64,000 bases of DNA from an uncultured Acidobacteriota bacterium (GCA_963770895.1 CAVYRF010000002.1:1280001-1344000); one strand, 5' to 3'; shown: positions 40,231 to 46,389, numbered from the stretch's first letter. Notes: a model not told the origin generated them from the letters alone. Made by a program: numbers and translations.

Positions 40231-40599
40231 TCAGGTGAGGCCGGTAGTGTGGCGGGCGACCGCACCGCGCACGATGGCGAGGTTGGACGAGGAGCGGTCT
40301 GCCGCCAGATAGAGGAACGATGCCGTGCCGACCAGGCGGATCATGTGGATCTGATCGCTCAAGGTCATCAGGATCTCCTCGAGCGTCGATTTGAGGTTGA
40401 GCGAGTTGATGATCTTGTACTTCTGCTTGACGATCTCGCTGTTGAACGCGCTGGCCGCCGCCAGGTCGAAGTCGGACCGCACCGACTTGACGGCGAGCGT
40501 CATGCCCGACTCCAGATCGACCAGCGAGCAGCCGATGAAACCAGGGATATCAGCTTGGATCTTGTCGAAGATCGCGAGTACTTCTCGTTCGGATGCCAT
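40231..40599 (-). CDS. Roadblock/LC7 (MglB-like) protein 3
   Basis: IPGFIGCSLVDLESGM..., LEEILMTLSDQIHMIR, FLYLAADRSSSNLA. Confidence 0.75.
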   Translation of the reverse strand: MASEREVLAIFDKIQADIPGFIGCSLVDLESGMTLAVKSVRSDFDLAAASAFNSEIVKQKYKIINSLNLKSTLEEILMTLSDQIHMIRLVGTASFLYLAADRSSSNLAIVRGAVARHTTGLT

Positions 40600-40674
40600 C
40601 GAAGCGCCTCCCTTCCTCTTTGCCGCTGCCCCGCTCCGAGTGGCGCAGGGAAACCGCACCGCCCGGTGCGTGCG

Positions 40675-41040
40675 TCACATGACTAGCGAGCTTTCCGCCT
40701 CGGCGAGCCGCATGCGCGCCATGGCGAGGTTGCTCTTGCCCCGGTCGAGCACAAGATAGGCGAAAAGGCCGTCCTTGGCCGCGAGCGGGCGGATCAGATG
40801 GTACTGCTTGCCCAGGGTGATCAGGATATCTTCGATCGAATCCTTGAGGCCCATCGAAATCATGGTCTTGCGCTTGGCACGCACGACCTCGGTGTTGCCG
40901 GCCGCCGCCACCTCCAGATTCAGGCCGCCGCCACCGCCTTCGGCGGCGAGCATCATGCCGCTGGTGCTGTCAACGATACAGGCACCCATGAACCCGTCCA
41001 ACGTCGACAGGTGCGTCAGGGTTTCCCTCAGGTTCGCCAT
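40675..41040 (-). CDS. Roadblock/LC7 (MglB-like) protein 2
   Basis: DGFMGACIVDSTSGM, AAAGNTEVVRAK, IEDILITLGKQYHLIRP, YLVLDRGKSNLAMAR. Confidence 0.8.
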   Translation of the reverse strand: MANLRETLTHLSTLDGFMGACIVDSTSGMMLAAEGGGGGLNLEVAAAGNTEVVRAKRKTMISMGLKDSIEDILITLGKQYHLIRPLAAKDGLFAYLVLDRGKSNLAMARMRLAEAESSLVM

Positions 41041-41134
41041 CGCGCCATCCCGCCTTTCGTCTTGCGGCTTGCGCCGCACGGTTGGACATGCCCGTCCTTC
41101 ATGGTCAGCACCGGCTGCGACGTACCACCCTCGA

Positions 41135-42942: not shown

Positions 42943-42958
42943 AGCACGGATCGTGCCT
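42943..42958 (-). promoter_or_regulatory. Sigma54 (-24/-12) promoter
   Basis: Minus strand AGGCACGATCCGTGCT = GG-N10-GC, close to consensus TGGCACG-N4-TTGC. Lies 32 bp before the ATG at 42910. Confidence 0.7.
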
Positions 42959-43039
42959 ATCTGCGGCGGCTCAGAGCGATGGCGCGCCGCCATCCCGATT
43001 CGCTGTCGTAGCGGGCCGAAAGCGCGACTTGCCAGGCCA

Positions 43040-44542
43040 TCAGCGGCGCACCTCCTCGACCGACTCGCCTGAATCCGGCGACCGGGCATCGGAACTCGCC
43101 GGTTCCCGGCGAATGGTTCCCGGCGGCACGCCCAAACCGCGCAGCTTCAGGCGCAGCGTCGACAGCGAGATGCCGAGCTGCCCGGCGGTGCGTGTCAGGT
43201 TGTGGCCGTTGGCGGCAAACACCCGCAGGATGTGCTCGGCTTCGACGACCGCCAGAGTCTGCGGCCGCACCGCCGGCGCGACGCTGGACGCGGCCAGGCA
43301 GTGCCGGGCCATGCCGGGCGGCACCCCGCCCGCGGCGGTCGCGGCATCGTCGTTCGCCGGGCTCACCGGCGCCAGCGCAGCGGCAGGGCGCAAGACATCG
43401 TGCAGGACGTCGTGCAGCACCTGGCCGCGTTCGACCAGCAGGGCGCGCTCGAGCACGTTGCGCAGCTCGCGCACGTTGCCGGGCCAGGGATACGCCGCCA
43501 GCGCCTCCATTTCGCCCGGCGCCAGCCGCGCGCCGCGGCCGGGCGCGAGCTTCTGCAGCAGGTGCTGGCACAACGCCGGCAGGTCTTCCAGCCGGGCGGC
43601 GAGCGGCGGCACCTGGATGTGGAGCACCGCCAACCGGTAGTACAGGTCGCGGCGCAGGCTGCGCTGCGCCAGCGCCGCCGCCGGCGCGACGTTGGTCGCG
43701 GCCAGCAGGCGCACGTCGATGCGGTGCTGCCGGCTGCTGCCAAGACGGCGCACGCAGCCGTCTTCGAGGGCGCCCAGCAGCTTGGCCTGGCTGGCAACCG
43801 AAAGCTCGCCGATCTCGTCGAGCAGCAGCGTGCCGCCGTCGGCAAGCTCGAACAGGCCCTTGCGCGTCGCGTTCGCACCGGTGTAGGCGCCGCGCTCGAC
43901 GCCGAACAGCTCGGCTTCGGCGAGGCTCTCGGGCAGAGCGCCGCAATTGATGGACAGGAAAGGTTCGGCGCGCCGGCTGCCGCGGTAGTGGATGGAGCGC
44001 GCCAGCACGTTCTTGCCGGTGCCGCTTTCACCGGTGATCAGCACCGGCGCATCGCTCGCCGCCGCCTGCTCGGCAAGCGCCAGAGCCTGACGCCACGCCG
44101 GGCTGTCGCCGACCAGCGCCAGGTCGGCTTCGTCCACGGCGCGCCGGTAGTGGGCGACCTGTTCCACCCGCTCCAGCTTGACGTGGCGCAGCGCGTTGGC
44201 AACCGATCGCCGCAGGTCCGCCAGGTCGAAAGGTTTTTCCAGGTAGTCGTGCACGCCGTCGCGGATCGCCCGCACCGCGCTATCGACGCTGGGGAAACCG
44301 GTGACCACGATGGCCACGGCGTTTTCGTGCACCCGGCGCAGCTCGCCGATCAGCTCCAGCCCGGGGCCATCCGGCAGCCGCTGATCGACGACCAGCAGGT
44401 CCGGCGGCGCCGCGGCGATGCTCATCCGCGCGTCGGCATGGCTGTGGGCAGTTTGCACGTCGACCTCGAGGTCGAGGTGCTGCGACACCAGGTCGCAGAA
44501 GAAGGCGTCGTCGTCGACGACCAGGAGACGCGGCCGCCTCAT
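43040..44542 (-). CDS. Sigma54-dependent response regulator (NtrC family)
   Basis: REC domain, [31 protein letters not shown] and Fis-type HTH. Confidence 0.93.
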
Positions 44543-46389
44543 CGCGTCTCCTCTTCCAAGGATGGCAGCGACAGGGTGAACATGGTGCCGCTGCCGCGCT
44601 CGCTCTCCACGTCGATGATGCTGCTCATCTGACTGAGCAGCTTGCGGACGATCGTCAGGCCCAGACCGGTGCCGCCGGCCTTGGTGGTGAAGAAGGGCTT
44701 GAACAGGTTGGCCAGATCCGCGGCGGCGACGCCACAGCCGTTGTCCTGGACCACCACCTCCAGCCGCCGGCCGCGCCGCCGCCCGGCGATGCGCACCCGC
44801 GGCTCCTGGCTGCCGGCCACGGCGTCGGCGGCATTGGTCACCAGGTTGAGCAGGGCCTGGCTGAAGGCGCGCGGATCGACGTGCACCTGCCCCAGATCGG
44901 CTTCGATCTGGGTTTCGAGCACGATGCCGCGCCGCTCCAGGTCGCCGCGCACCAGGTTGGCAAAATCGTTCAGATAGCGGGCGGCGGCGACCGGTTCCAG
45001 GCGAGGGCGCTCGAAGGCGCCGAAGCTCTTGAAGGCGCGCAGCAGATATTCCATGCGCGCGATCTCGGCCAGCGACCGCTCCAGGTACGACGACACCATT
45101 TCGGGCGGGTAGTGGGCAAGGTTCTGGTGCAGCACGGTGAGCGCCGTCTTGACCGAATTGATCGGGTTGCCGAGCTCGTGGCGCAAGGTGGCGAAGACGA
45201 AGCCGACCTGGTCGACCATGTTGACGGCATCCGCGATCGCCTCCAGCCGCCGCGGCTCGGTGACGTCGCGGGCGACGCAGACAAAATGCGTGGTGGCACC
45301 GCTTTCGGTGCGCACCGGCGCCACGTCGGCTTCGATCTGGTGCACCGACCCGTCGGGCCCGATCGCCGCGAAGGTGCCGCGCCAGACGCGTCCGGCGAGC
45401 ACCGCGGCGAGGATCGGCCGCAACTCCTGGCGCGGCGCGAGCGGCATGCTGAAGGCGCGCCGTGCGACCAGCCGTTCGGCGTCCAGGCCGGCGGCATTGC
45501 GGTAGGCCGGGTTGGCGTAGAGCAGCTCGCCATTGCGGCTGACGATGAGCAGCATTTCGCCGGTCTGCTCGATCGCCGCCGACAGGCGCCGGGCTTCTTC
45601 CTCGAAACGCCGCCGCTGCGTAACATTGGCGATTACGTGCGCCCAGGCGGCGCCGCGCCGCGCCAGGCCGCGCAGCTGGACATTCGAGATCTCGAACCAG
45701 TCGGCACAGCCGGGGAACTGCGCCGTCACCTGCTCCTTGCGGAAGTTGCCGGCGTCGGCGTCCGCCCCCGGTCCGAAAAAAGCGCTGTGGAGGTCACGGC
45801 CGATCAGCGAGCGGAAGGGCAGGCCGAGAAAGCGCGAGGCGGCCAGGTTGCAGCGGGCGATCCTGCCTTCGGAGTCCTCCAGCACGATCATGTCCTTGAC
45901 GGAATCGACGGTGGCGCACCATTCGTCGCGCAGGCGGCCAAGGTCGTCCTGGGTTGCCTTGAGCTCGCTGATGTCGAGGATCAGGCCGTTCCAGGTCTGG
46001 CCTCCGTCAGGCAGCGGCGGATCCGGCACCGCGTGCAGGCGCAGCCAGCGCACGGCGCCGTGCGAGCGGACGCGGAATTCTGCGGTACAGGTGTTGCCGG
46101 AAGTCGTAGCGTCGTCGAGAGCCGCGGTGAGAGCGGCGCGGTCCGCTTCGACCAGACCGTGGGCCAGCGCCTCAAGGTCGGTGGTGACCGGCGCCGGCAC
46201 GCTGTCGCAGGCGCGGTCGAAGATCTGGCCGGCGCCAGCGCTCATGAACAGCAGCCGGCCCTGGCGCAGTCCCAGGCGATGAAACTGAAAAATTGCTCCT
46301 GGAACGGCTTCGACGGCACGAGCCAAGCTTTGGTGGCCGCCGGCGGCCACGGACAACTCGCGATGAGATGAACCTTCAGCCCAAGCCAT
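44539..46389 (-). CDS. Cytoplasmic multi-PAS sensor histidine kinase
   Basis: Three PAS/PAC-like repeats, H-box RHELGNP, NLVTNAADA, DNGCG, PFFTTK and GTGLGL. Start uncertain (46389 or 46419). Confidence 0.9.
   Translation of the reverse strand: MAWAEGSSHRELSVAAGGHQSLARAVEAVPGAIFQFHRLGLRQGRLLFMSAGAGQIFDRACDSVPAPVTTDLEALAHGLVEADRAALTAALDDATTSGNTCTAEFRVRSHGAVRWLRLHAVPDPPLPDGGQTWNGLILDISELKATQDDLGRLRDEWCATVDSVKDMIVLEDSEGRIARCNLAASRFLGLPFRSLIGRDLHSAFFGPGADADAGNFRKEQVTAQFPGCADWFEISNVQLRGLARRGAAWAHVIANVTQRRRFEEEARRLSAAIEQTGEMLLIVSRNGELLYANPAYRNAAGLDAERLVARRAFSMPLAPRQELRPILAAVLAGRVWRGTFAAIGPDGSVHQIEADVAPVRTESGATTHFVCVARDVTEPRRLEAIADAVNMVDQVGFVFATLRHELGNPINSVKTALTVLHQNLAHYPPEMVSSYLERSLAEIARMEYLLRAFKSFGAFERPRLEPVAAARYLNDFANLVRGDLERRGIVLETQIEADLGQVHVDPRAFSQALLNLVTNAADAVAGSQEPRVRIAGRRRGRRLEVVVQDNGCGVAAADLANLFKPFFTTKAGGTGLGLTIVRKLLSQMSSIIDVESERGSGTMFTLSLPSLEEETR

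Follow-up and report, generated by a model that had tools for sequence, protein, structure and literature searches.

A Roadblock-protein operon with a putative sigma-54 promoter and no adjacent GTPase gene in an uncultured Acidobacteriota bacterium

Introduction

What do Roadblock proteins act on when no GTPase is encoded beside them? To our knowledge, the polarity module MglA/MglB of Myxococcus is almost the only source of what is understood about Ras-like GTPase switches in bacteria, and a locus that seems to hold the Roadblock partners of such a switch and lacks the switch itself makes this question concrete. We analysed such a locus in a stretch of 64,000 nucleotides (nt) from the genome of an uncultured Acidobacteriota bacterium (GCA_963770895.1, CAVYRF010000002.1:1280001-1344000), hereafter called the window, in which six genes at 40231-46419 encode a histidine kinase, an NtrC-type activator, a regulator with a receiver (REC) and a DUF4388 (PATAN) domain, and three small Roadblock-related proteins, designated S1, S2 and S3. 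An earlier note on this DNA had described the genes as a sigma-54-driven cascade ending in three Roadblock/MglB-like proteins, and had taken the absence of a GTPase to be part of the design of an undescribed signalling module. The observation is confirmed here, and the interpretation is partly supported: parts of it are right, and the GTPase-free design is wrong, the GTPase gene following the S2-S3 pair in 57 of 59 related loci. We consider it somewhat probable that the locus is a lineage-specific, GTPase-less, sigma-54-inducible copy of a widespread, uncharacterised Roadblock-pair/GTPase switch, and that it acts in trans.

Results

Three small proteins assigned to the Roadblock superfamily

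All six genes lie on the minus strand and are co-directional, with intact reading frames and a coding-type G+C content at third codon positions (GC3 0.83-0.89). The features of the locus, with the starts of S1, S2 and S3 set from family alignments, are as follows.

44539-46419, minus strand: PAS histidine kinase, 626 amino acids (aa) from a TTG start; cytoplasmic, multi-PAS
43040-44542, minus strand: NtrC-family sigma-54 enhancer-binding response regulator, 500 aa
42943-42958, minus strand: putative sigma-54 -24/-12 promoter element, AGGCACGATCCGTGCT; GG-N10-GC, 10/12 consensus matches
41570-42910, minus strand: REC-DUF4388/PATAN regulator, 446 aa, assigned by Pfam
42042-42168, minus strand: 18-bp tandem repeat, 7.1 copies, encoding DRAQPP linker repeats (Tandem Repeats Finder, 94% matches)
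41573-41959, minus strand: C-terminal domain of the regulator (residues 318-446), possibly a degenerate Roadblock domain
41135-41566, minus strand: S1, Roadblock-related
40675-41040, minus strand: S2, Roadblock-fold, S2 subfamily, 121 aa
40231-40599, minus strand: S3, Roadblock-fold, S3 subfamily, 122 aa

None of the three small proteins matched any model of Pfam or NCBIfam, and Robl_LC7 (PF03259) gave no hit to them even at E 10; when the whole genome was scanned with Robl_LC7, the canonical mglB and one other gene were recovered, and not S1-S3. Their membership of the Roadblock/LC7/MglB fold superfamily is nevertheless confirmed, for S3 by a predicted structure, for S2 by its identity to S3 and for S1 by profile-profile comparison, and the three Roadblock-like paralogues of the earlier note are to this extent borne out. 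The AlphaFold2 (AF2) model of S3, built from 41 relatives, reached a predicted local distance difference test score (pLDDT) of 95.9, with secondary structure elements in the order alpha-beta-beta-alpha-beta-beta-beta-alpha. Foldseek returned 126 PDB matches to this model at E <=0.001, with MglB chains in the lead (6izw_C of M. xanthus, template modelling (TM) score 0.85, E 2e-7), followed by MglC (TM 0.64), an Asgard Roadblock protein and MP1/p14 (TM about 0.8). Sequence searches of the PDB with family profiles gave MglC (7ct3) as the best match both for S2/S3 (E 0.027, with an archaeal Roadblock protein next) and for S1 (E 0.13).

S2 and S3 are 40% identical to each other, and S2 is 61-73% identical to its orthologues; across the family, identity is about 40% between the S2 and S3 types and 60-73% within them. 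An obligate heterodimer would be expected to show such a deep split into two subfamilies, from which we infer that S2 and S3 may form one. All 28 invariant alignment columns are retained in S2, and all 30 in S3. After clustering, the relatives of S3 number 1814 at 90% identity, none of which carries a Pfam domain, and are reduced to 1116 representatives at 50%; those from metagenomes reach 93% identity. S1 shows only faint pairwise similarity to S2 and S3. It belongs to a tightly conserved family of 135 aa, with 200 relatives at 52-59% identity, and the profile of this family aligns with that of S2/S3 over 118 columns (hhalign probability 97.6%, E 2.9e-12). Within its own family the window S1 is aberrant: 8 residues are inserted, and its central block has been rewritten. 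The G+C content falls to 0.64-0.65 across S1-S3 (40000-41500), from 0.70-0.74 in the flanking DNA, and this dip may reflect conserved proteins rich in Lys, Ile and Asn, or a foreign origin.

A long MglA-family GTPase follows the S2-S3 pair in related loci

The synteny search across phyla that the earlier note had proposed drew on 59 loci with S3 relatives (53-80% identity), from Acidobacteriota, Myxococcota, Steroidobacteraceae/Rhodanobacteraceae and Acidimicrobiales. An S2-type gene (at least 55% identity) lies just upstream of S3 in 49 of them. An MglA-like GTPase gene starts no more than 200 nt from the S3 stop in 54 of the 59 loci, at a median gap of 25 nt, and three more (L026, L053, L072) have it on the same strand 0.9-1.3 kb downstream; in L031 and L069 no GTPase was found within the 7.0 and 4.05 kb available, respectively. 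This near-constant adjacency argues that the neighbouring GTPase is the ancestral and usual partner of S3. Because a GTPase gene follows the pair in 57 of 59 loci, the window is best described as a derived, GTPase-less copy.

The GTPases of these loci are about 480-530 aa long, align over their full length across phyla and share a conserved C-terminal extension. Their motifs comprise the P-loop GxxGKT, SVPGQ replacing DxxGQ at G3, an invariant Arg in GRTLxFDW, and NKRD; the SVPGQ resembles the TVPGQ of MglA. In the tree they form a clade with 100/100 support apart from canonical MglA. One locus (L074, 8898-10087) carries, after the GTPase gene, another small Roadblock-like gene (weak MAPKK1_Int/MP1 match, E 0.0017) and a gene for a DUF4388-like protein, an arrangement implying that, in a full system, further Roadblock and PATAN components can be present downstream of the GTPase.

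GTPase genes in the genome and its relatives

No GTPase gene was detected in the window itself: tblastn with five MglA-type queries over the entire 64 kb gave nothing below E 0.05, in agreement with what had been read from the sequence before. The genome (8.16 Mb in 3 contigs) does encode such proteins, which Pfam scans with Ras (PF00071) and GPN-loop (PF03029) missed and protein queries recovered. A family GTPase of 529 aa is encoded at contig 2:1171196, about 150 kb away, and has only an S2-type neighbour upstream (the pair spans 1170793-1172782). It falls in an unresolved basal group of the family clade, by the GTPases of L017, L018, L020 and L074, the loci whose S3 proteins are closest to the window S3 (66-70% identity). 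The GTPase gene is followed by one for a Ser/Thr kinase with a TonB_C domain (L090 14934-16910). A second family GTPase at contig 2:1164627 (to 1167056; L090 6627-9056) is a long-branch protein of 809 aa with no Roadblock neighbour, adjoining genes that, judging from their translations, may encode NiFe-hydrogenase small and large subunits. Also present are, at 2533959, an MglA paralogue 514 aa long and a canonical mglB-mglA pair at contig 2:1595478-1596700.

A second module without a GTPase, with the order S2-S3-DUF4388-Roadblock, lies at contig 2:804681-806311 (L089 6682-8312). The gene that follows it encodes a MacB/FtsX-type permease (L089 8469-9870) and is split over two frames with its middle part missing. 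A permease gene of the same type comes after S3 in the window, across 177 nt of continuous sequence; the two permeases are only 32-40% identical, and the shared neighbour may be a coincidence.

Among 31 genomes (this one and 30 relatives), nine have a full or partial S3-type gene at >=55% identity, and a long match to the family GTPase is present in eight of these nine. The remaining one, G005, is a fragmented genome of the same genus (84% complete); its S3 fragment is 80% identical to the window S3 and has no GTPase in the 4 kb downstream, and its contig, which may equal the L069 record, was counted once. Another genome of the genus, G003, carries an S2-S3-DUF4388-Roadblock module with a GTPase. 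A predicted complex of S2, S3 and the G domain (residues 1-200) of the 1171196 GTPase, each entered as an alignment, scored 0.02 against a mark of 0.32, without controls, a value that speaks neither for nor against binding.

The kinase, the activator and the putative sigma-54 promoter

The kinase has PAS_8, PAS/PAS_4/PAS_9, HisKA and HATPase_c domains in Pfam, and an H-box RHELGNP can be read in its translation. The activator combines a receiver (Response_reg), Sigma54_activat (3.2e-62), AAA_lid_14 and HTH_8, and its translation contains the loop GAYTGA and the Walker A motif GESGTGK; a receiver, an AAA+ domain with a GAFTGA-type loop and a Fis-type helix-turn-helix together place it in the NtrC family. 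The coupling of the two genes described earlier was recovered, the activator ATG and the kinase stop sharing 4 nt (ATGA), and the kinase gene now extends to 46419, position 46389 being an internal ATG. A second coupling that had been claimed, by GTGA between the regulator and S1, gave way to a 3-nt gap with no overlap (regulator stop 41572-41570, S1 GTG at 41566). The kinase is 48% identical to one whose gene immediately precedes that of the closest REC-DUF4388-Roadblock orthologue (L109), and in the Myxococcota loci a kinase gene directly adjoins the REC-DUF4388 gene; because of this adjacency in both, the window kinase may serve both receivers.

The spacer between the activator gene and the regulator gene is 129 nt long and holds the -24/-12 element, whose GG-N10-GC pattern was confirmed; the core GGCACGATCCGTGC lies at 42944-42957, 48 nt ahead of the regulator ATG. 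Scored against the consensus TGGCACG-N4-TTGCW, with a threshold of at least 10/12 matches, only three sites were found in the whole 64 kb. Two overlapping motifs of this kind (10/12) at 6484-6506 (minus strand) lie within an NADH:flavin oxidoreductase gene (5682-6878) and are probably chance or intragenic sites. The GG and GC doublets, the 10-nt spacing and the position upstream of a gene are those of a sigma-54 promoter, and rpoN is encoded in the same genome.

Comparison with related loci lends the element further support. Among the 50 loci whose upstream sequence reaches 250 nt or more, 12 carry the motif, at the same threshold, on the coding strand and within 250 nt upstream of S2, compared with an expectation of 0.47 derived from the remaining sequence of these loci. 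The motif also lies between ntrC and the following gene in L017, L020 and L074, as in the window, and many Myxococcota loci have a second site facing a divergent kinase-REC-DUF4388 operon. An NtrC homologue is encoded in 21 of the 59 loci, 14 of which show the motif in the expected place. Inverted repeats that might serve as activator binding sites were sought upstream of the promoter, and nothing convincing was found; a scan of 39900-46700 revealed no intrinsic terminator after S3 and no sigma-70-like site ahead of the operon. In one soil metatranscriptome, two contigs of 151 nt are identical to 40282-40432 (S3) and to 40526-40676 (part of S3 and the S2-S3 spacer). Taken together, the comparative pattern suggests that the operon may depend on sigma-54 in vivo.

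A REC-PATAN regulator with a possible fourth Roadblock domain

The regulator consists of a receiver at residues 8-119 (Response_reg, 5.6e-19), a DUF4388/PATAN domain at 128-226 (7.2e-13), a Pro-rich linker and, at the C-terminus, a domain of about 125 aa. D13, D58 and K108 are invariant in an alignment with REC-DUF4388-Roadblock relatives, and the union of PF14332 with a receiver that has a phospho-acceptor Asp (D58) identifies the protein as a PATAN response regulator. The DRAQPP repeat is absent from its sole close homologue, P0271 (393 aa against 446 aa), and the expansion of the linker would therefore be recent.

Where the window regulator has its C-terminal domain, most of its relatives carry an evident Roadblock domain as their last domain, and the earlier suggestion that the window domain is a fourth, degenerate Roadblock is plausible, with weak support from structure prediction. 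A two-sequence AF2 model gave the order beta-beta-alpha-beta-beta-beta-alpha, and Roadblock/LAMTOR chains occupied the top Foldseek rows (E 0.017-0.05, TM 0.33-0.42). The pLDDT of this model was 56.7, and the sequence itself carried no such signal: one homologue was found among 5.8 billion sequences, and hhalign of the domain, alone or with its homologue, against the S2/S3 and S1 profiles gave probabilities <1%. In a search of the ESM Atlas with the domain, the top score was 0.87, and a cluster that contains Robl_LC7 came no higher than rank 13 (0.85), which we treat as a lead only.

The association of Roadblock with DUF4388 that had been noted before stands. Among 25 longer relatives of S3 scanned by Pfam, DUF4388 is fused ahead of the Roadblock domain in 17, eight of which also have a receiver, and the frequency of such fusions is the reason to regard the two as functionally linked; in the remainder, a Ser/Thr kinase, a receiver alone, a tetratricopeptide repeat (TPR) or a P-loop domain is fused to the Roadblock domain.

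Other genes in the window

The kinase gene is flanked by genes for a TonB C-terminal domain protein (46559-47302, minus strand) and a membrane GGDEF diguanylate cyclase (47561-48892, plus strand). Farther away, the window encodes a type I polyketide synthase of 2131 aa (8522-14917, plus strand; KS-AT-KR-DH-ACP), next to a MarR regulator gene at 6920-7357.

Discussion

In its full form the system most likely comprises a PAS kinase, an NtrC-type activator together with sigma-54 promoters, a regulator of REC-PATAN(-Roadblock) architecture, the S2/S3 pair and an MglA-family GTPase of about 500 aa; the pair itself most likely arose by an ancient duplication. We propose that, in the window, the kinase would phosphorylate the NtrC-type activator, which would open the promoter at 42943-42958 and induce the operon of regulator, S1, S2 and S3; the same kinase would probably phosphorylate the receiver of the PATAN regulator as well. 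An MglB-like heterodimer of S2 and S3 would then bind and regulate, in the role of a GAP (GTPase-activating protein), a GEF (guanine nucleotide exchange factor) or a platform, a GTPase of the family whose gene lies elsewhere in the genome, for which the 1171196 protein is the best candidate. Coupling of phosphorylation to the S2-S3 platform would fall to the regulator, by way of its PATAN and C-terminal domains, perhaps together with S1. The observed part of this picture consists of the genes present, their folds, homology and synteny, the conserved motif and the lack of a GTPase gene in cis, while we infer phosphotransfer, dependence on sigma-54 in vivo, the heterodimer, binding of the GTPase in trans and the cellular output.

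Several known systems resemble the locus in part. Like MglA/MglB of Myxococcus xanthus and Thermus thermophilus, it has a protein, S3, whose fold matches MglB (TM 0.85), and in relatives the pair adjoins an MglA-family GTPase with (T/S)VPGQ at G3 and an intrinsic Arg. Regulators of the MglB type are dimers that bind their GTPase in its GTP form and alter hydrolysis. In contrast to the MglB homodimer, there are two distinct Roadblock paralogues per GTPase; S1-S3 go undetected by Pfam Robl_LC7, and the GTPase of the relatives is about 500 aa long with a C-terminal extension. Moreover, a kinase, an activator of the NtrC type and sigma-54 are tied to the system, and in the window the GTPase gene is missing: adjacency to an MglA-family GTPase gene, which marks MglB-type proteins, is absent from the window and present in 57 of the 59 related loci. 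MglC, an orphan Roadblock paralogue of M. xanthus, is described in the consulted part of PMC10329633 as bridging the response regulator RomR and MglB. It too is a Roadblock protein with no GTPase gene beside it and with a response regulator among its partners, whereas it is a single gene and the window has three in a putative sigma-54 operon with a PATAN regulator, S2 and S3 having GTPase-linked orthologues.

The survey of Wuichet and Sogaard-Andersen (2014; PMC4316618), as far as its text was available to us, already places several elements of the locus in print, namely MglA groups with one or two MglB homologues and thus 1:2 MglA:MglB systems, 328 orphan MglB homologues, duplicated conservons that have lost mglA, and PATAN genes that occasionally neighbour mglA genes of Groups 1 and 5 (for which it refers to Makarova et al. 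2006). The term 'sigma' has 0 occurrences in the main text of that paper, and members like S2 and S3, which are invisible to Pfam, may have been missed or only partly captured by it. Among the papers listed by our literature search, none dealt, by title or opening of the abstract, with a Roadblock system linked to sigma-54/NtrC or with this Pfam-invisible family, and one mentions PATAN proteins only in passing. The claim that the module is undescribed is not supported in full, the association of MglB homologues with PATAN proteins, orphan MglB proteins and 1:2 systems having been reported.

The actinobacterial conservon (CvnA-D), in the account that PMC4316618 gives, likewise encodes a kinase with a Roadblock protein and an MglA-family GTPase. 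The window kinase is of a soluble PAS type, unlike the membrane HAMP kinase of the conservon, and the locus adds response regulators and sigma-54 and occurs in other phyla. The four-gene conservon set (CvnA kinase, CvnB Roadblock, CvnC and CvnD GTPase) is incomplete in the window, where the six genes include no GTPase and yielded no CvnC-type Pfam hit. The PATAN-REC regulators of cyanobacteria (PatA and the PixE/PixG class) also join DUF4388/PATAN to a receiver, whereas in the window the order is reversed, with the receiver first, and a C-terminal Roadblock-type domain is added. The type IV pilus motor is a binding partner of PATAN regulators, according to the accessible part of a preprint (bioRxiv 10.1101/2021.06.11.447907); no pilus gene turned up among those scanned in the window. 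Paired Roadblock paralogues also have a eukaryotic parallel. In the Ragulator/LAMTOR complex, the MP1-p14 heterodimers of paralogous Roadblock proteins form a platform for the Rag GTPases of eukaryotes; these are structural neighbours of S3 (TM about 0.8), and with no sequence relationship and with eukaryotic partners the parallel is one of analogy only.

The main rivals to a switch acting in trans are an adaptor role and functional decay. As MglC-like adaptors, a type of Roadblock protein that links a response regulator to MglB and has no GAP activity, the Roadblock proteins would scaffold the REC-PATAN regulator, through its C-terminal domain, together with canonical MglB or other Roadblock dimers, and would make no contact with a GTPase. 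MglC is the best sequence match to both profiles, a RomR/MglC/MglB complex has been documented (PMC10329633, in the part consulted), a canonical mglB-mglA pair is available in the genome, the fusions of Roadblock domains to REC-DUF4388, Ser/Thr kinase, REC and TPR point to docking, and two GTPase-less modules coexist in this genome. The matches to MglC are weak, however, and in structure MglB outranks it (TM 0.85 against 0.64); the near-universal adjacency of S3 and GTPase (54 of 59 loci) moreover singles out the GTPase as the usual partner, and we hold a pure adaptor role to be unlikely. If the module were instead a remnant that drifts without function after losing its GTPase gene, the insertion and rewritten block of S1, the expanded 18-bp linker repeat and a regulator C-terminal domain without detectable Roadblock similarity would be readily understood, as would the failure to find the locus as such in the other genomes of the genus that were searched. 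Against this stand six intact frames with coding-type GC3, the retention of every invariant residue in S2 and S3, metagenome relatives of S3 at up to 93% identity and RNA-library contigs identical to S3, themselves weak evidence; G005, with its 80%-identical S3 fragment, likewise lacks a GTPase in the 4 kb downstream. Decay appears to us quite improbable. Loss of a GTPase gene after S3 through misassembly or rearrangement is very improbable: nothing direct speaks for it, beyond the fact that none of the metatranscriptome contigs listed visibly bridges 40053-40231, whereas the genome is assembled into only 3 contigs, the interval between S3 and the permease gene is merely 177 nt of continuous sequence, and a second genome of the genus also has no GTPase after S3.

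Our preferred reading, a GTPase-less copy acting in trans, has its own difficulties. The earlier idea of a remote GTPase gains plausibility from the family GTPases found elsewhere in the genome, but the partner is a conjecture, none being encoded in cis, and the 1171196 candidate already has an S2-type neighbour of its own. S1 gave no match in nine genomes of the same genus, and because S1-family genes of three relatives from the same order (G021, G030 and G019, at L106-L108, respectively) sit in unrelated contexts, away from S2, S3, GTPase, REC-DUF4388 and NtrC genes, S1 need not belong to the system functionally. The best regulator match in the same nine genomes is only 33-34% identical, and the poor conservation of the regulator and of S1 could reflect relaxed selection. 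Taken by itself, the 14-base promoter core lacks significance, with 1 match where chance would give 2.7 per 64 kb window, and no motif at the threshold used was seen in 7 of the 21 loci that encode an NtrC homologue. The RNA evidence is minimal, the contigs indicating no strand, start or level and coming from a library that may contain DNA.

A more specific form of the trans-acting switch would be one that is split and gated by transcription, in which the sigma-54 operon supplies the missing S3 to the 1171196 GTPase, 150 kb apart, along with a second S2, S1 and a REC-PATAN docking protein open to phosphorylation. We regard this form as unlikely. If it were true, a two-component signal would decide which Roadblock proteins make up the heterodimer and thereby set the GAP or GEF regime of the GTPase, a mode of small-GTPase control not described in bacteria. 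Whatever its partner, the window is a natural "GTPase-deleted" version of the system, and can show whether Roadblock pairs work in trans or independently of a GTPase. More broadly, our analysis defines a large family without a Pfam domain, in which paired Roadblock proteins accompany a long MglA-family GTPase, and which, being associated with PATAN response regulators, histidine kinases and sigma-54 activators, may link two-component signalling and sigma-54 transcription to small-GTPase control in Acidobacteriota, Myxococcota, Steroidobacteraceae and Acidimicrobiales.

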